A DNA stretch of 64,000 nucleotides from an uncultured Gammaproteobacteria bacterium (GCA_963748215.1 CAVVHS010000009.1:96001-160000), one strand, 5' to 3'; counted from the stretch's first letter, positions 28,669-50,743 are shown. Translations and numbers: made by a program. The notes: generated by a model from the letters alone, not told the origin.

Positions 28669-29445
28669 ATGGATCTTGCAACCTTAATCGGTCTGGTCGG
28701 CACGCTGGGTGCCATCACGACCGCCATACTCATGGGCAGCGGCTTTTCCATCTTCGTCAATGGACCGGGTCTGATGATCGTGGTCGCCGGCACCCTGACT
28801 GTGGTGCTGATGAAATACCCCTTGACAGTCGCCGTGCTTGCCATGAAGGCGGCAGCGAAGGCATTCCTGCACAAGGTGCAGACACCCCGGGACCTGATCG
28901 AGAAATGCGTGGAGCTTTCCAATATTGCGCGCAAGGAAGGCGTGCTCGGTCTGGAACAGGTCGAGATAGAGAATGAATTCCTGAAGCGGGGCGTCATGCT
29001 GGTAGTCGACGGCAATGATGCGGATTTTGTGCGCAAGATGCTGTCAAATGACATCAACCTGACCATCGAGCGGCATGAGGAAGGGCAGAGCATTTTCAAG
29101 TCGATCGGGGATGTGGCGCCAGCCATGGGCATGATAGGTACCCTGATCGGCCTGGTGCAGATGATGGCCAATATGAGTGACCCCAAGGCGCTCGGTCCGG
29201 CCATGGCGGTCGCGCTGCTCACCACCCTGTACGGTGCCGTGATCGCCAACGCGCTGGCACTGCCTATAGCGGACAAGCTTGCGCTGCGCAGCAAGCAGGA
29301 GCGCATGACGAAATCGCTTATCCTGGAAGGCATTTCGGCGATCCAGGCCGGGCTCAACCCGCGCGTGGTAGAGGATCTCCTGAAAACCTACCTGCCGGTA
29401 ACGCAGCGTGATTTCGTTAAGGATGAAAAGGAGGAAGCTGCCTGA
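28669..29445 (+). CDS. pomA: Flagellar stator A subunit, PomA type
   Basis: MDLATLIGL, GDVAPAMGMIGTLIGLVQM, GPAMAVALLTTLYG match PomA rather than enteric MotA. Confidence 0.9.
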   Translation: MDLATLIGLVGTLGAITTAILMGSGFSIFVNGPGLMIVVAGTLTVVLMKYPLTVAVLAMKAAAKAFLHKVQTPRDLIEKCVELSNIARKEGVLGLEQVEIENEFLKRGVMLVVDGNDADFVRKMLSNDINLTIERHEEGQSIFKSIGDVAPAMGMIGTLIGLVQMMANMSDPKALGPAMAVALLTTLYGAVIANALALPIADKLALRSKQERMTKSLILEGISAIQAGLNPRVVEDLLKTYLPVTQRDFVKDEKEEAA

Positions 29446-29469
29446 CGGCGGTTTTCCGGTTGCTGACTC

Positions 29470-30444
29470 ATGGCTGATTGTAATTGTCCGCCCGCACCCA
29501 AGTGTCCTGCGGGCATCCCGGCCTGGGTACTCACCTTTGCCGACCTGATGTCACTGCTGCTGGCCTTCTTCGTGTTGCTGTTCTCGTTTTCAGAGATGGA
29601 CCAGCAGAAATACAAACAGGTGGCCGGTTCCATGCGTGATGCATTCGGTATCCAGCGTGAAATCAATGTCAAGGATCCGCCCAAGGGCATCAATATCATC
29701 GCTCAGGAGTTCAGCGCCGGCAAGCCGAATGAATCAACGCCGCTGAACGAGATGCGCCAGGTGACCACGGACGATTTCCGTCAGTACCTGGAGATTCCGA
29801 AGCCTACCAAGGAATTCGAGGATGCATTAAAGGGCGAAAAGGAGCGTATTCAACTCGCGCTGGCGAACGAGATCAAGGACGGTTTCGTCGAGGTGGATAT
29901 CATCGACGAAACGATTGTGATCCGCATACTAGAGAGCGGTTCGTTTGCGTCGGCCAGCGCCGGGCTGATCGAACCGTTCAAAACCCTGCTGGAGAAGATG
30001 GCGAGGACCATCGGCTCCAATCCCGGTTCCGTGATCGTGGCCGGGCACACGGACTCGAAACCGATTGCGAACTCGCATTACCGGTCGAACTGGGAACTGT
30101 CAGCATCGCGTGCCGTCACCGTCGTGCATGAACTGATGGAGCATGGTGGAATCCCCAAGAGCCGGTTCCGCATCGAGGGGTACGGTGACATCAAGCCGGT
30201 AGACAGCAATGATACGGCGGAAGGGCGTGCACGTAATCGCCGGGTCGAGGTGACGCTCCTGTATGATGAAACCCTGGTGAAGTCCCAGCCGGCTGTGGCC
30301 GGGCCTGCTGTGGATTTGCCGCCGGCGAGTGTCGAGGAAGCCGCCGCAGTGAGTGTGTTCGGGCCGGTACAGGGCGAAATGTCCAGTCCGATGGAAAGTC
30401 TACTGATCAACCCCTGTCCGGGCTGCGATACAGGCAAAAGATGA
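29470..30444 (+). CDS. pomB: Flagellar stator B subunit, PomB/MotB
   Basis: WVLTFADLMSLLLAFFVLLFSFSEMD; OmpA-like GHTD, NWELSASRA, NRRVE. Confidence 0.9.
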   Translation: MADCNCPPAPKCPAGIPAWVLTFADLMSLLLAFFVLLFSFSEMDQQKYKQVAGSMRDAFGIQREINVKDPPKGINIIAQEFSAGKPNESTPLNEMRQVTTDDFRQYLEIPKPTKEFEDALKGEKERIQLALANEIKDGFVEVDIIDETIVIRILESGSFASASAGLIEPFKTLLEKMARTIGSNPGSVIVAGHTDSKPIANSHYRSNWELSASRAVTVVHELMEHGGIPKSRFRIEGYGDIKPVDSNDTAEGRARNRRVEVTLLYDETLVKSQPAVAGPAVDLPPASVEEAAAVSVFGPVQGEMSSPMESLLINPCPGCDTGKR

Positions 30445-42741: not shown

Positions 42742-42897
42742 CCCGCATTTCTCACCGGGATAGGCACCGCCCATTGACACACTGTTTCGTGTCGAATGGG
42801 TATTCGTTTCATGGTTTCAACTCTTTAGGTCGTGCCTCGCCGCCCGGTGAGACATCCGGGCTAGCTGTGATTTGTCAGTAGGTTGTTCATCCACGTT

Positions 42898-42924
42898 TCA
42901 AAGACTCCCGCTGGTTGCCGATAC
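42898..42924 (+). promoter_or_regulatory. sigma28 promoter
   Basis: TCAA-N15-GCCGATAC. Confidence 0.75.
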
Positions 42925-42979
42925 AGCAGGCACGGGGCCGCGTTGTGGTCCGTCCATACATGGAATGTGGGGAAAGAAT

Positions 42980-43849
42980 ATGAGTATCTCATCTGTCGGG
43001 AATCATCCGTATACCGGTGCTGTCATGGATCTGCCGGCTACAAAGGAACGCCACGTACATCGCTTGAACAGTGAAGCGATAGCGGCAGAACCCTCCGTCA
43101 AGGCCAATGCCGATGACGAATCCGTCACCCGCGCCGAAAGACACGATCATCACGGGCACGACAGGCATCACGGGCATCACGGCCATCACGGGCATCGCGG
43201 TCACGGGTTCGGCTTTGGTCGTTATGGTATGGGCATGGGCCACGCCATACACGAACAGCTGCGTGCCGCACGCCGGGAGGTTGCCAGCGAGCAGGTCGGT
43301 GAGGCCGTTGTCGACCTGACGACAAAGGTAGCCGAAGTGATCGGGGCCGCAGGGCAGCTGGATGGCATGAATACCGCGCAGGAGAATTTTACTGCCGCGG
43401 TTCAGGATGTGGTGGATCGTTTTGACAGCGGCGAGATCGGACGTCGCGGCGCGATGGCCGGATTCCGTGCCGCCTTCGAGGGTCTTGCCGATGCGGTGCG
43501 TAGCGGCTCCGCGAGCGATGCGTCGGTTACCGAAAATGATGTGCCGGTCGACACTAGCGCCGCGGATGCCAGCGTCGTATCTGACGGCGCGGCAGATCCG
43601 GTTGCGGGGGAGGCGACGGACGGGGAGAGCGGATCCCTGGTCGAAAACCTTGGCCAGGTTTTCAATTCGTTCATGCAGGGTCTGAGATCCGATTTCGCGG
43701 CGCTGGGCGGGATACGATCATTCATGTCGGCAGAAAACCGCGACATGATTCGTCAAACGTTTGTGGGTCTGTACCGCGAACTCGCCGGCCTGAATGCCGG
43801 GGAAGCGGACGTTGATACGGAGGCCGCGGGCGTCGACCAGCTCGCTTGA
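42980..43849 (+). CDS. Hypothetical His-rich acidic protein
   Basis: 289-aa ORF from ATG 42980; HDHHGHDRHHGHHGHHGHRGH tract; sigma28 promoter upstream. Confidence 0.75.
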   Translation: MSISSVGNHPYTGAVMDLPATKERHVHRLNSEAIAAEPSVKANADDESVTRAERHDHHGHDRHHGHHGHHGHRGHGFGFGRYGMGMGHAIHEQLRAARREVASEQVGEAVVDLTTKVAEVIGAAGQLDGMNTAQENFTAAVQDVVDRFDSGEIGRRGAMAGFRAAFEGLADAVRSGSASDASVTENDVPVDTSAADASVVSDGAADPVAGEATDGESGSLVENLGQVFNSFMQGLRSDFAALGGIRSFMSAENRDMIRQTFVGLYRELAGLNAGEADVDTEAAGVDQLA

Positions 43850-43864
43850 ACGGGTGCGGGCCGA

Positions 43865-44230
43865 GGGTATTAATGGTGGCGTCCCTGTCGTGGTGCCTCC
43901 CCCAAACTGACAGGACCACCCCGTGCCGGTCCCCAGTTCGAGTACGAGACTGGACGAAATATCAAGTAGTTGTATTAAGGTGACATCCCTGTCATGCAAC
44001 TTCCTGGCAAGCTTGATTACTCGTTCAGTGTCCTCGAGCTGGTGCGATCACGGGGTTGCGGTATCAATCCGGTTGTAATAGGTGACGTCCCTGTCGTACT
44101 ACTTCCCTGATAAACCGATACACCCAACCTGTACTACGCACTTGCTTCTGACCCGGTCCCGGCTGATGTTTTTTATCGGAATGCCGGTTACGCGGGACTG
44201 GTCCTGCTGCACTCCATCCCCCATGACTTG
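43865..44230 (-). ncRNA. Candidate Csr/Rsm-type (GGA-hairpin) regulatory RNA or RNA array
   Basis: Three repeats GACAGGGAYGYCACC at ~103-nt spacing plus many other GGA motifs on the minus strand; no convincing ORF; boundaries approximate. Confidence 0.5.
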
Positions 44231-44495
44231 AACATCCAATACCAGAATTTACGCGAAGCAATCCGTGACGTGCATGCATAAAGGCATGCGTACGTGGTAT
44301 TGGAAAAAATCGGTGTCTTGGCTGGCGCGCGACTGAAGGCCGCGTGCGGTTGTCACTCAGGGCAGATTTAGGACCCGTAGTTACGGTGGTGACAACTTGA
44401 ACGGAAGTATATAAAAACTGTACGGTATTACAAGCAGTTTTTCATGATTCCGGAATATATTTTGCAGACTGCGCTCTAACTGTTTGTAAACAGCG

Positions 44496-45122
44496 TCAAG
44501 GCAGTTTCAGTAATGCTGTCAGTTCCGGTTCCATTCCCGTGGCCATGCGCGTCTTGGCATATTCTTCATAAGCTTCGACGATCCGCTCGCTCAGCTGCTT
44601 CAGAGACTGGTTGCGCGGGCGGCAGATGCCGTGCAGGAGTAACAGTGCATCGTCCCTGCAAATTCCCTGGCTATGCATCACCAGGCCGAGTGCAACGCTT
44701 ACGATGCCTGATACGTGGACGGCGCGACCGAGGTTGTAGATTTCCCGGGACCGGGATAGCGACGCCTCGATTTCGGCGCTGACCTGACTCGGTGTGAGTG
44801 GCTTGACCAGGTAGCCAAGGGCGCCCAGCTGGGAAGCCGCGGACACGGTCTGGAAATCGTCTGACGCGGTCAGAAAGATGAACGGGATGCCGAACTCGAA
44901 TTTCAGGCGTTTTGCCAGTTCCAGTCCCGAGGTGTCCGGGAGTTCCTGGTCGATGATGGCCAGGTCAAAACGCCGCTTCACACAGGCTGCGATAGCCTCC
45001 TTGCCGTCGCTGGCTGTGTTGATCCTGAAGCGTTCGTTCCTGATGCCCTCGCCGAAGGCGAGCCGGATCACCGGGTCATCGTCCACCAGCAGTATTTCCG
45101 ACTGAGGGTGTTTATGCGCCAT
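44496..45122 (-). CDS. Response regulator with REC and ANTAR-like RNA-binding domain
   Basis: ILLVDDD, IIDQELP, FLTA, GYLVKP; C-terminal VALGLVM..QG....A...L....R.RN.SL..LSERIV. Confidence 0.8.
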   Translation of the reverse strand: MAHKHPQSEILLVDDDPVIRLAFGEGIRNERFRINTASDGKEAIAACVKRRFDLAIIDQELPDTSGLELAKRLKFEFGIPFIFLTASDDFQTVSAASQLGALGYLVKPLTPSQVSAEIEASLSRSREIYNLGRAVHVSGIVSVALGLVMHSQGICRDDALLLLHGICRPRNQSLKQLSERIVEAYEEYAKTRMATGMEPELTALLKLP

Positions 45123-45240
45123 GGCTTGCCTGCGGCATGCCTGAGGGCGGGATGTCATTGGTATGGTGTTTCTGCCTGCACATGTATGTGAATCCATTCG
45201 GTGGCGATAGGTATGACGACAGTCAATGTAAATACTTCAA

Positions 45241-48200
45241 TCAGTGGGCTATTTCAAGGGCGGCATGGTTAATACCGGATTTTATTGCCTGTTCCTGCTG
45301 TAATATTACATTCACACGGCCGTATTCCTGTTCCATCAGATCAACGATTTCCACGGCGCCAAGCGTCGAGCCGCCGCGGCCCAGTCTGTCCAGCCGCTCA
45401 CACAGACCGGCCAGCGCGGCAGCGCCCAGTTGCGCGGAACTGGACTTGAACTTGTGTGCGGTACGGCTTAGTCCCTGTGCATCGCCATGCAGTGCGGCGC
45501 TGCGCAGTTCCTGCATGTGTTGCGGGGCTGTTTGCAGGTACAGGTCGATGATGCGTTCCATGAGACGCTCGCCGTTCTCCATATTGCGATACTCCTCCAG
45601 GCATGCCGGGTTGAATGTCAGGCCCTCCGGCTCGAGAGGTGTGGCAGGAGGCGTTGCCTGCATGGCATTTCCGTCGTGGTCCGGACGGCAACGTGGCAAC
45701 TGGCCGGCAAGCATGGTGTACAAGGCTTCCATTGTCAGCGGCTTGCAGAGGTAATCGTCCATGCCGGCCGCGAGGCACTTGTCGCGTGCGTCGCTCATGG
45801 CATTGGCGGTCAGGGCGACAATCGGAATGTGACGCCCCGGATGCTCCGCCTCACGCGACCGTATTTCACTGGTTGCCCGGTAACCATCCATCACCGGCAT
45901 CTGGCAATCCATCAGGACCAGGTCGAATTCGTTGTTATGCAGCAGTGCCAGGGCACTGGCGCCATCGGCCGCCACGCTAACCTTGCAGCTCATCGACTCC
46001 AGCATATAGGTTGCCACTTCCCGGTTGATCGTATTGTCCTCTACAAGGAGTACATGCGCGGCAAGGGGGGCTGCGCGACGCCAGTCGAACCGGGGCGGGC
46101 TGGGCTCGATTGCGTTAGCCTCGGAGCGAGGCAGGCGGATACTGAACCAGAATTCCGAACCTGCCTCGTTGTCACTGGTTACGCCAATCGTACCTTCCAT
46201 CTGTTGTACCAGTTTTTTGCAAATGGTCAGTCCCAGGCCGCTGCCGCCATAACGACGCGTGGTGGACCCGTCGGCCTGGGAGAACGAGTCGAAGATATAT
46301 TCCTGCGCATCCTTGCTGATGCCGATGCCGGTGTCCGTAACCGAGAATCGCAGGCTGGCGTCCTGTTGGGTGGCATCGTCCGCCTCCACAGAGAGCGTGA
46401 CGCTGCCCGTATGAGTGAACTTGATTGCATTTGCCATGAGATTGTTGATGATCTGGCGCAAACGCGTGGTATCGCCAATCCATGTGCTATGAATGCCAGG
46501 CGCAATTTTGCAATGCAGGGCCAGTCCTTTCCGGGTCGCCTGCTCATGAAACAGCAGACCGGTCTCCATGATCAATTCGTTGATATCAAAGGGTTCCGGA
46601 TTAAGCTGCAACCTGTTTGCCTCTATGCGGGACAGGTCGAGGACGTCGTTGATCAGGCGCAGAAGCAACCTGCCGGATTGCTGTATGCGTGAAGCAAGCT
46701 GGTATTGACGACTGTTCATCCGGCTTTCCAGCAGTAACTCCGACATGCCCAGAATGCCATTCATCGGTGTACGGATTTCGTGGCTCATGGTTGCCAGGAA
46801 TTCACTCTTGGCGCGGTCGCTGGACTCGGCTTTGTCCTTGGCCTCCAGGATTTTTTCCTCGGCCTCGCAGCGATCCGTGATGTCCATGATGATGCCGGTA
46901 TACATCTGTTTGCCGCCGATAAACATGTTACTGACGGCCAGCGATACCGGAAATTCGCTGTTATCCCTGCGGCGCATGACGATCTTTATGTCTTTCTGCA
47001 GGGTGTTATCGACACCGCTGTTCATCAGTTCCGTAAAGGCGACGTAGTATTTATTCTGTTTGCGCTCCGGTACCAGCATAAGGGCATTTTTGCCAATGAC
47101 ATGCCGTGCCTGGTAGCCGAACATCTGTTCCGCGGCGGGATTGAAGCTCTCGATGTTGCCTTCGTCGTCGGTTGTAATGAGTGCGCCGAACATGGTCTCC
47201 ATGATCGTGCGCTGGCGGATTTCACTCTGCTGCAAACGTTGCATGAACAGGTTCTTCGCGTGGCTGGCATTCTCTGCCTGTATTTTCAGTCTGGTCAGCT
47301 GGCCGACCTGGTTACGGACCGCTTGCAGGATAAAACCCACGATGAGCAGGAAGATTGCTGCACTTGAAAACTGCGTTACCAGCAAGTGGTCACGGGCCTT
47401 CGATGTCCGTTCATTGGCGATGGTATCGAGCTGCGCAATGTATTCCTGAACGACAGTTGATGCGCTTGCCAGATTATTGCTCACGCTGTCAGTCAGCGAA
47501 TTGAGCTGGTCATTCAGCCTTACCCGTTCCTGCCGCAACGTGATTCCGCTTGCCAGTACATCATACAAGGGGATATCAACGGTCCCGGTTGTATGGTGCT
47601 GGTTCGGCCCTGCGGTCGTGTATCCAAAAAGCTGCGCGGCAATATTATCGACCAGCGTGACACTCAGGGGTGTCGCCGTGCCGCTATTTGCAGTGAAGGT
47701 GCGGATATGCAGCCTGAGTGCATCAAGCTTGGGTTCCAGCCGGTTCTTTCTTGTTTCAGACAATTCGTGGAGGTTGTCACTCGAGCCCATTGAATCGATG
47801 AGCCTTTCAATATCCGTCAGGTCAGCCAGGATTGTCCCCAGATAGGTGTGGCCGACATTTGGATATTGATTACTGAATGCCAGTTCATTAGACCTGTTGA
47901 TTTGAGTTGTTCTGTCGATAATCTCTCTCAGCGACTGGTTCGACGATGTTGCATTGGCTACTTGCTGTTCAAACGCGTCAAGGCTGTCCCGGACCCTGGC
48001 GAGAGGTCGCTGCATGCCGGCTTCATCCCAGTAAAGAACGTACTGGGTCCGCCAGTTGCGTGCCGAGTAGTGCAGGGCTACAAGACCGGATGCAACCTGG
48101 TTAAGTTCGTCGCTGAGAGGTGTGGTTGAATCTGCACTCAACAGTTTCTGCAAGGTGTGTATGTCGCTGTTGAGTGCGCCTAGCGAGTCGCTTGAGTTGT

Positions 48201-48492
48201 CGTGCGTTTGCTGGTGTTCGGTCTTGTAAAGAATGTTGCTGATGATGGCCCTTGCGTGGCCCAGGTTGTGCTCGATGCTGGCAATGGTATTGCCCACCTG
48301 CATACGATGCCGAAGTATTTGTTCGCGGTCGGTCTCGAGGTCCTCGAAGGCTTTCTGCACGAGCAATGTGGAGATGTAGCCGGCAAGCAGTGCCGTTATT
48401 ACCAGGCCCGTGCAGAGCAACAGGATACGGATGCTTTCCTTGCCCGTAGACTGCATCGTGAAGTCGGTACGGGATGAACCTGCCTGTGTCAT
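45241..48492 (-). CDS. Hybrid sensor histidine kinase (TM-periplasmic-PAS-HisKA-HATPase-REC-HPt)
   Basis: [11 protein letters not shown] (PAS), [39 protein letters not shown] (HPt). Confidence 0.93.
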
Positions 48493-49762: not shown

Positions 49763-50695
49763 CTACAAGGCCCTGGACTCCGTGCGCAGGGCACTGCCGA
49801 CCGCCAGCAGGCAACTGGCCGCGGATGCCTGGTCGAGCTCCTGTTCAGCGCCGATGACATCACGTATCGTCACGGTGCGGGTGGTCAGTCCGAGTGTCTG
49901 CTGCAGCGCGTCCTCCAGTCCGTAGAGCGTGAGCGGCAAGGGCAGGATGGCGATGGTCCGGATCGGGGCCTGGCGGAAGTGCTGCTCGTAATAGTCGATG
50001 GAGCGCTGGATCTCCAGTGCCAGCCGGCTGCTCAGCGCATGGGGATTCGAGGCATTCTCCTGCAGATCGACATAGCCGAAATCGATGGTGCGCGTGAGAT
50101 AGAGTGTCGCCCGGTGCGTCAGGGTAATGAGGCACTGGTGCGGGCTGAAATACAGGGTGGCCAGGCCCGATGCATCTTCCGGGAGGCGGGCGGCGAGGTT
50201 GCGCATCGCCAGTTCGGGTATATCGATAACCTCCAGATTGATGCCGGCCTGCTCCAGCTGGTCGATGCGCTGCTTTACCGTGGCGGCACGTGCGACCACG
50301 ACGTACATCTGCTTGCGCGTTCCCGCGGGACCGCCAGGTGGCGCATCGAACACATCGAGCACGGCATCATCGATATGGAAGTCGATCAGCTCCTGGATCT
50401 GCCAGCGCACGGCGGCGCGCAGTTCCTGGGGCGGGACCTCGGGTGCGTCGACCACCAGCAGCTGATAATCACCGATATCGAGCAACGTCGAGCACTGCTG
50501 CCGGTCCAGGTTGCGGCCTTTCAGGAATTTTTCCTGACTGGCCTTGTCGCCAGGCGGCAGGGATTGGAACGAACATGACTGCAGGCTGGCGCCGGCCTTG
50601 CCCTGTTGGCGTACGCTGGCAATGGCGACACCATTTTCCGTGGAGACGATGCCGGTCATCGCGCCGGGTGGTTTCCTGCTAAATAATGTGACCAT
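49763..50695 (-). CDS. mshI: MSHA biogenesis protein MshI (PilM-like part)
   Basis: YQLLVVDAPEVP..EL..AVRW, IDIPELAMRNL, LALEIQRSIDYYE. Confidence 0.85.
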   Translation of the reverse strand: MVTLFSRKPPGAMTGIVSTENGVAIASVRQQGKAGASLQSCSFQSLPPGDKASQEKFLKGRNLDRQQCSTLLDIGDYQLLVVDAPEVPPQELRAAVRWQIQELIDFHIDDAVLDVFDAPPGGPAGTRKQMYVVVARAATVKQRIDQLEQAGINLEVIDIPELAMRNLAARLPEDASGLATLYFSPHQCLITLTHRATLYLTRTIDFGYVDLQENASNPHALSSRLALEIQRSIDYYEQHFRQAPIRTIAILPLPLTLYGLEDALQQTLGLTTRTVTIRDVIGAEQELDQASAASCLLAVGSALRTESRAL

Positions 50696-50743
50696 AATAA
50701 ATCCCTCTCCATGATTCATTCGCGGACGTGGACCACGACTGCA

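Follow-up and report, generated by a model that had tools for sequence, protein, structure and literature searches.

The question raised by this locus is what occupies the 646 bp left between a response-regulator gene (44496-45197, minus strand) and the convergent orfX (42872-43849, plus strand) in a 64,000-nucleotide (nt) stretch of DNA from an uncultured Gammaproteobacteria bacterium (GCA_963748215.1, CAVVHS010000009.1:96001-160000), called the window below. An initial annotation had described three GGA-bearing repeats in this gap and proposed that a BarA-like hybrid kinase acts through an RNA-binding ANTAR regulator on a modular Csr-like sponge RNA. Most known examples of such RNAs, the Csr/Rsm decoys, come from cultured enterobacteria, pseudomonads, vibrios and legionellae, and searches by homology detect them with difficulty. 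The analysis described here leads to the answer that the gap holds an independent, lineage-specific structured small-RNA gene of ~0.5 kb, unannotated so far and read on the minus strand from 44399 to ~43860; that the repeats are real and form part of a well-supported structured RNA family new to Rfam; and that a predicted CsrA-binding decoy of the Csr/Rsm type is the best available explanation, with chances that we put at about even.

Promoter and structured parts of the RNA gene

The gene consists of the following parts, given in the direction of transcription.

44406-44434, minus strand: sigma-70-type promoter with CTTGTA (-35, 44434-44429), a 17-nt spacer and TATACT (-10, 44411-44406), preceded by an A-tract
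44323-44404, minus strand: structured 5′ domain, an 8-bp stem GUUGUCAC/GUGACAAC around the invariant ACGGGUCCUAAAUCUGCCC, then a G+C-rich hairpin
44134-44322, minus strand: variable central region, in which a GGGGGA element and the long-range stem CCAAUACCA/UGGUAUUGG were read from the sequence
44053-44133, minus strand: module 1, a long irregular hairpin with its first GGA at 44104-44106 and the apical GAC-AGGGAC-GUC at 44084-44095
43951-44031, minus strand: module 2; an internal loop of 11 nt contains its first GGA, GUUG(C)A/UACAAC forms the middle stem and UGACA-GGGA-UGUCA (43982-43993) the apical hairpin
43847-43927, minus strand: module 3, GGGGGAGG followed by GAC-AGGGAC-GCC (43878-43889); the 3′ end of the RNA, approximate, adjoins the stop codon of orfX

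Between 43600 and 44700 the sole promoter-like site on either strand is TTGTAA-N16-TATACT on the minus strand, its second hexamer ending at 44406, and the pattern AAAAAC-N2-CTTGTA-N17-TATACT is retained in 12 of 12 orthologous loci; the transcription start inferred from it would lie near 44399. The 5′ domain has 17 consensus pairs, five of them with compensatory changes (RNAalifold, 7 sequences), and one U-G pair is held in all seven sequences along with further G-U variants elsewhere in the domain. Since these pairs would be A-C mismatches on the opposite strand, they fit an RNA made from the minus strand. The central region is poorly conserved outside the closest relatives. Apart from the promoter itself, a conserved block at 44490-44440 (minus strand), ~60-90 nt upstream of the inferred start, resembles a direct repeat TTAC-N6/7-TTAC, e.g. 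GTTTACAAACAGTTAGAG; it is retained in loci without the regulator gene too and may be a site for a DNA-binding activator.

Repeat search defined in the gap three 27-nt direct copies (43874-43900, 43978-44004 and 44080-44106) spaced by 104 and 102 nt, the outer ones being 70% and 85% identical, respectively, to the reference copy at 43978-44004. Thus the repeat starts (43875, 43979 and 44081) and the spacing of 104 and 102 nt given in the initial annotation are correct to one base, and so is its description of a GGA about 15 nt ahead of the core on the minus strand, each copy reading there GGA-N13-CAGGGAYGYCACC. The perfect hairpin UGACA-GGGA-UGUCA that it quoted belongs to the middle copy only; in the outer copies just a 3-bp stem closes the hexaloop AGGGAC, with GAC/GUC as its two sides, but GAC/GCC in copy 3. 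The two GGA motifs of each module lie 16 nt apart, one in the 5′ internal loop and the other in the apical C-AGGGAY-G hexaloop. Neither of them nor the CAGGGA core varies in any of 19 aligned units (7 sequences); the columns without change are the first GGA, the G two bases further and the hairpin G..CAGGGA. Pairing in the apical stem reaches 90-91%, and the pair in its middle, alternating between A-U and G-C, covaries (A-U in 11 units, G-C in 6 and A-C in 2). Judged by such conservation at orthologous loci, the repeat unit is more than a product of chance.

Two covariance models were used for searches, R1 for the first 82 nt (window 44323-44404) and R2 for the 48-nt module core. In the window R2 matches module 1 at 44068-44115 (60.5 bits, enclosing the repeat copy 44080-44106), module 2 at 43966-44013 (48.1 bits) and module 3 at 43862-43909 (51.2 bits). 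The long hairpin of module 1 is supported by single-sequence folds, and a 15-bp outer stem closes this module in two relatives, G052 and G007. For module 2 a model of three helices was evaluated in an alignment of 10 genomes, where 73.5% of cells pair in comparison with 63.1% (standard deviation 2.1) after shuffling, a level reached by 0 of 500 shuffles, while controls with slid partners gave 26-51% pairing (at most 51.5%); 11 of the 20 pairs change on both sides. RNAalifold applied to all 19 units recovered the apical stem alone. The middle stem is 46.5% paired in the ungapped alignment and 86.7% paired in the orthologous module 2 alignment, the lower value being due to register shifts. The minimum free energy of the whole transcript (561 nt) is no better than that of shuffled sequences (z = -0.63), a comparison uninformative for a long RNA, so that the structural case rests on comparison and not on thermodynamics. 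Small open reading frames of 71 and 93 aa are present in the gap, where indels of 1-2 nt and the number of modules distinguish the orthologues. In two other loci (G019, locus L020, and G022, locus L023) the apical GGC-AGGGAC-GCC hairpins of modules 1 and 3 are followed by 5-8 U and look terminator-like, with a very weak stem; U-runs after apical hairpins were not found in the window.

Assembled contigs of a sediment metatranscriptome (X20) include five pieces with 90-95% identity to the window, which within 43500-45300 cover 43884-44346 only, whereas a DNA run (X5) covers all 30 bins of the same interval. The contigs from the RNA library thus cover the gap and not the regulator gene, a hint that the RNA of a close relative is far more abundant than the neighboring mRNAs.

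Distribution of the RNA and its linkage to a kinase-regulator pair

The genus under study is an uncultured sediment gammaproteobacterial one, and the RNA is limited to a subset of it. Among 37 genomes of the genus, R1 has exactly one match each in 12, the genome of the window included. In 11 of these 12, R2 has two or three matches each, all just downstream of the R1 match, and in the twelfth (G049) one weak match of 26.6 bits. Stray R2 matches amount to a weak one (G020, 28.7 bits) and a fragment at a contig end, and R2, the model applied to this set, found the RNA in none of 17 sister-genus genomes representing five other genera of the order. When 40 relatives were searched at the DNA level, two conserved blocks emerged in 4 of the 24 that belong to the same genus; one comprises the promoter and the initial ~100 nt, the other the repeats. 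According to R1, R2 and strict motif searches, the RNA is single-copy and never dispersed. The close relatives are metagenome-assembled genomes of Gammaproteobacteria, one regulator orthologue being labelled Thiohalobacterales by its source; the papers found under this name are, by title and beginning of abstract, ecological surveys. Sequencing runs containing this DNA are marine or sediment metagenomes, and a scan of genome contigs gave two close relatives besides an unrelated regulator from Rhizobium.

The protein-coding genes flanking the RNA are as follows.

45241-48492, minus strand: hybrid ("unorthodox") histidine kinase of 1083 aa; the N-terminal 420 aa are without family match and are followed by PAS-HisKA-HATPase-REC-Hpt (Pfam)
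44496-45197, minus strand: response regulator, REC followed by a divergent ANTAR-like three-helix domain
42872-43849, plus strand: orfX, convergent with the RNA and following flgL; 325 aa, His-rich (HDHHGHDRHHGHHGHHGH)

Regulator orthologues (E ≤ 1e-40) are encoded in 9 of the 37 genomes with 59-95% identity, and in all nine the kinase gene comes first, then the regulator gene and immediately after it the RNA. The expectation of the initial annotation that the repeats would be conserved beside orthologous kinase/regulator pairs is therefore confirmed in nine of nine genomes having the regulator. As a negative control, 80 metagenome loci with generic ANTAR regulators (79 of them at ≤43% identity and one short contig at 51%), all distant and retrieved by a scan with generic REC patterns, yielded no copy of the RNA. 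Gene order in these genomes suggests that the kinase-regulator pair and the RNA travel together, which argues for a functional tie between them.

The true start of the regulator is probably Met26 (44496-45122, 208 aa), as in its orthologues. Its REC domain is recognized with E 1.1e-23 and ANTAR with 19.5 bits, under the Pfam cut-off of 27.3; a DNA-binding domain is lacking. Among solved structures, those of EutV (E 2e-19, alignment of residues 8-182 of 208) and Rv1626 are closest in sequence. The AlphaFold model (predicted local distance difference test score, pLDDT, of 85.3) has RNA-bound and free EutV (6ww6/6wsh) as its top folds with 182-186 aligned columns, and according to this model the protein is a REC-ANTAR fold. 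The RNA-contact residues of EutV, as they are named in PMC8934654, are R142, K143, K147, K149, E160, Y164, R168, M172, N173, R175 and R177, and none of these 11 is kept in the regulator (HMMER alignment, in which a shift of 1-2 residues in the last loop is possible). The position of Tyr164, described there as stacking on the flipped-out G4, is Leu and the cluster Met172/Asn173/Arg175/Arg177 reads R-P-N-S, replacements that are conserved across the subfamily; the basic residues of the first helix are replaced by S, G, V and L; and the linker helix has a 7-residue deletion. Members of this subfamily are at least 58% identical to one another, beyond which identity falls to 39% or less; one Arg, R168 in the 208-aa protein, is the same in all of 20 aligned sequences, and the C-terminal domain has the invariant pattern VSGIVSVA.GL.M...R..AL......CRP.N..L. 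Of the ANTAR regulator proposed initially, the REC-ANTAR fold stands, while the Pfam score is below the cut-off and the contacts by which EutV holds its RNA are not retained.

The kinase falls below every NCBIfam equivalog cut-off, with 434.7 of 676.5 bits for TorS and 401.1 of 890 for BarA, and two other unorthodox kinases of the genome (C7:140920-142803, minus strand, and C8:169140-171050, plus strand) score higher on the BarA model. The true UvrY/SirA/GacA is encoded elsewhere (NF007018, 296.6 bits against a cut-off of 280, C6:~369.3 kb, plus strand). Assignment of the kinase as BarA/GacS was rejected on these grounds, TorS being the better fit, and what remains of the proposed BarA-like kinase is the common HisKA-HATPase-REC-Hpt layout. 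No RNA target of UvrY/GacA and of the two kinases scoring higher on the BarA model was found in the genome.

CsrA and other candidate partners

A decoy of the Csr/Rsm type is characterized by several GGA motifs with a good share of them in hairpin loops, and here six invariant GGA are found in three modules, three being in C-AGGGAY-G hexaloops. Each module shows its two motifs, in the 5′ internal loop and in the apical hexaloop, at a distance of 16 nt that, reportedly after the work of Mercante and coauthors in 2009, suits bridging by one CsrA dimer. The genome encodes CsrA in one copy (91.6 bits, C5:13308-13463), and CsrA is present in 36 of the 37 genomes of the genus. The CsrA consensus obtained by systematic evolution of ligands by exponential enrichment (SELEX) is given in PMC4347634 as RUACARGGAUGU, with ACA and GGA fixed and GGA placed in a hairpin loop; the apical element fits this consensus, the middle copy having the exact ACAGGGAUGU. 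Binding of CsrA by the RNA is plausible in view of these motifs. The RNA would then bind up to about three dimers of the single CsrA and would serve as an accessory Csr/Rsm-type decoy, whose level or activity may be tied to the adjacent phosphorelay leading from the hybrid kinase to the REC/ANTAR-like regulator, as gene order suggests.

Comparison with Rfam, suggested in the initial annotation for CsrB and RsmX/Y/Z, gave no match at the gathering score in the window and none at E up to 10 in 43700-44600 (the CsrC and RsmX models being covered by window-wide scans only). In the whole genome RsmZ and CsrB had no matches and the best score for RsmY was 18.6 bits at a cut-off of 57, located at other places, so the sponge niche of this genome is unfilled by known families. 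The sub-threshold RsmY matches were examined and dismissed as the end of a csp gene and coding sequence. Ranking of the genome by GGA density or by GGA in hairpins brought out neither this locus nor another convincing decoy, its top being made of short coding genes, rRNA/tRNA and REP-like repeats.

Several observations weigh against the CsrA-decoy explanation or restrict it. GGA density is modest, as 551 nt contain 15 motifs and the 311-nt part with the repeats 10, the genome mean being 4.5 (standard deviation 2.3) per 300 nt; the locus is outside the 25 GGA-richest non-coding windows of the genome, and its density is well below that of CsrB, RsmY and RsmZ. Further GGA motifs between the repeats, pointed out in the initial annotation, are indeed present and make up just this weak excess. 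The first A of ACA is G in some units. A search of the minus strand in 43600-44700 gave no intrinsic terminator, and the metatranscriptome contigs carry neither strand nor ends, carry-over of DNA into the library being possible. The box recognized by GacA/UvrY upstream of its targets has the consensus TGTAAG-N6-CTTACA; no such box precedes the RNA, though a true UvrY/GacA is encoded, since in 11 of the 12 promoters the best candidates within 110 nt have 4-5 mismatches of 12 and the promoter of G006 has no match with 5 or fewer, a result equal to that of 2400 shuffles. Genome-wide, no box with 0 mismatches and one with 1 mismatch (C7:139405) were found. Presence of the RNA in 12 and of CsrA in 36 of the 37 genomes implies that the RNA is not a general CsrA antagonist of the genus. 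As to the tie with the phosphorelay, G049 keeps the RNA with a regulator remnant only, and G008 (90% complete) and G007 (100% complete) are without a regulator orthologue anywhere. Finally, the C-AGGGAY-G loop also satisfies the minimal ANTAR site as stated in PMC8934654 (A1, G4 and three closing pairs).

Taken together, these data leave room for at most an accessory, Gac-independent decoy. Decoys of the Csr/Rsm class independent of Gac are exemplified by RsmV and RsmW. The sponge proposed in the initial annotation thus retains the consensus-fitting loops, the encoded CsrA and a discrete minus-strand RNA, and lacks high GGA density and a GacA box. G008 and G007 retain the promoter, the 5′ domain, two or three modules and the convergent orfX homologue, with a divergent gene of 133-136 aa at the place of the operon. 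Persistence of the modules without the regulator means that their partner is not the regulator alone, and since the conserved sites outlive it in these two genomes, the main partner should be something that every genome has, such as CsrA. In G008 the CsrA model finds a single match, broken into two pieces that overlap (model positions 4-28 and 26-53, C5:163494-163644), which could be a frameshift or an assembly error.

The RNA might instead be a dedicated partner of the REC/ANTAR-like regulator, with CsrA uninvolved, being either a decoy, as EutX is for EutV, or a transcript whose elongation or stability is controlled by the phosphorylated regulator via AGGGAY hexaloops; we regard this as unlikely. 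It is favored by the position of the regulator directly upstream in nine of nine cases and survival of this linkage over the 59-95% identity range, by EutV as the best match in both sequence and fold, by the U-tracts that modules 1 and 3 of G019 and G022 carry behind their apical hairpins, and by absence of the RNA from all 80 generic ANTAR loci, which makes the pairing specific to this subfamily. According to PMC8934654, which offers a new definition of the minimal ANTAR site, one A1/G4 hexaloop closed by three pairs is enough; the paper also describes sequestration of EutV by EutX, a precedent for an RNA acting on an ANTAR regulator in this manner; the site so defined is present in each module as AGGGAC or AGGGAU on a 3-bp stem. 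The fit of C-AGGGAY-G to the ANTAR pattern noticed initially therefore holds for the minimal single hexaloop and does not extend to the tandem form: a canonical dual hairpin overlapping a terminator was not found, there being one hexaloop per module and 102-104 nt between modules. The same account has to face the loss of all 11 EutV contacts, with replacements conserved in the subfamily; the invariant G3, A5 and second, upstream GGA, which it leaves unexplained as A1 and G4 suffice for ANTAR; the window without a short-linker dual hairpin or an overlapping terminator; the two or three intact modules of G008 and G007, whose genomes have no regulator gene; and the failure of R1 and R2 to find a further target elsewhere in the genome. 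The evidence for the complete chain from kinase through ANTAR to sponge, as drawn in the initial annotation, is tight synteny, and the chain is weakened because the ANTAR domain is degenerate in its contacts, UvrY/GacA is encoded separately, and G008 and G007 have the RNA without the regulator. A modified chain could be imagined, in which the kinase phosphorylates a re-tooled ANTAR-fold regulator that competes with CsrA for the C-AGGGAY-G hexaloops or remodels or stabilizes the modules, providing a Gac-independent RNA-level input to Csr without a DNA-binding step, so that a two-component signal would determine the amount of CsrA bound to the RNA, yet we consider it distinctly improbable; a literature search brought up no paper joining ANTAR with CsrA sponges in its title or abstract.

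Equally doubtful as a dedicated ANTAR partner is a structured non-coding RNA with another function or protein partner, in which GGA would be structural or serve another binder and cis action on orfX or flagellar genes would be possible. Here the best conserved part, the 5′ domain, carries no GGA, GGA density is unremarkable, the RNA and orfX stay together in 7 of 12 loci, the regulator-free ones among them, the RNA runs up to or into the end of orfX, and the TTAC-N6/7-TTAC-like block ~75 nt upstream hints at a DNA-binding activator; two invariant GGA per module at a spacing suited to a CsrA dimer are nevertheless left without explanation, and no candidate partner was identified. That there is no gene at all, the repeats being a palindrome cluster of the repetitive extragenic palindrome (REP) or bacterial interspersed mosaic element (BIME) kind between convergent genes or the 3′ untranslated region of the kinase-regulator operon, appears highly improbable. 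A dispersed REP-like family does have the short words GGAGGTAG, ACGAC and CAGGGA in common with them, and the gap is flanked by convergent genes; but the modules occur only at this orthologous locus in each genome (R2 and strict motif) and are never dispersed, a conserved promoter and a unique 5′ domain belong to the RNA itself, G008 and G007 contain the RNA but not the operon, and the RNA-library contigs cover the gap and not the regulator gene. The CsrA-binding accessory decoy thus stays the explanation we prefer.

Genomic setting and known systems

Upstream in the window are the genes for FlgK and FlgL, which agrees with the flagellar side of the placement between flagellar and MSHA loci proposed initially; the MSHA side was checked only to one PilM_2 match at 49763-50719. 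The product of orfX has no Pfam or NCBIfam match, and its homologue is convergent downstream of the RNA in 7 of the 12 loci, including both without the regulator. The dispersed REP-like family mentioned above is ACGACTRCAKGGATGYAGGAGGTAG, usually followed by AGCAACGCATGGAGCAGTTGCCGAG, with 20 pattern matches genome-wide (e.g. C5:166621-167020, minus strand; C6:979915, plus strand; C8:433119, minus strand). Its hairpin CURCA-KGGA-UGYAG holds GGA in the loop and covaries (UACA/UGUA versus UGCA/UGCA); the family is found in 36 of the 37 genomes and is not associated with presence of the RNA. Other GGA-rich arrays are built of units with three CACGGAA words at ~10-nt spacing beside a GTAGGGTGCGTTTTACGCACC palindrome; they are among the GGA-richest non-coding windows and may be REP/BIME-like or iteron-like. 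Their positions are given below.

C8:~460997-461496, minus strand: CACGGAA array
C6:~218105-218604, minus strand: CACGGAA array
C7:~29126-29525, plus strand: CACGGAA array
C2:~106199-106598, minus strand: CACGGAA array

The locus adds to the known riboregulators an RNA family from uncultured marine-sediment Gammaproteobacteria that is not in Rfam, with a promoter, a structure and covariance models, and displays putative binding sites on long modular hairpins. If binding of CsrA is true, it would represent an accessory decoy not wired to GacA and travelling with a phosphorelay that has a degenerate ANTAR-fold output, raising the question of what role an ANTAR domain plays after losing its RNA-contact residues. 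If CsrA does not bind, the locus nevertheless provides a new structured RNA whose kinase-regulator partner is conserved.

With EutV, Rv1626/PdtaR, AmiR and NasT the regulator shares the same two-domain fold, EutV and Rv1626 being the best by sequence and structure; it differs in the deletion in the linker helix, in Leu at the place of the G4-stacking aromatic residue and in replaced basic contacts, and belongs to a distinct subfamily. Like EutX/Rli55, as described in PMC8934654, the RNA is small and has A1/G4 hexaloop hairpins beside a two-component REC-ANTAR regulator, a tie that here is suggested by gene order; in that description EutX has a dual hairpin and EutV full contacts, whereas here single hexaloops lie 100 nt apart and the contacts are lost. 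With the Csr/Rsm decoys (CsrB/CsrC, RsmX/Y/Z) it has in common the non-coding nature, repeated GGA with several in ACANGGANGU-type hairpin loops, CsrA in the same genome, a promoter of its own and modular repeat architecture. In contrast to them, it has no similarity by sequence or covariance model, no GacA box or terminator was found for it, and it is longer, of lower GGA density and restricted to part of one genus; its sites are set in long hairpin modules of ~100 nt behind a large GGA-free 5′ domain, and the proteins to which it is linked are a kinase and an ANTAR-like regulator, not BarA/UvrY.

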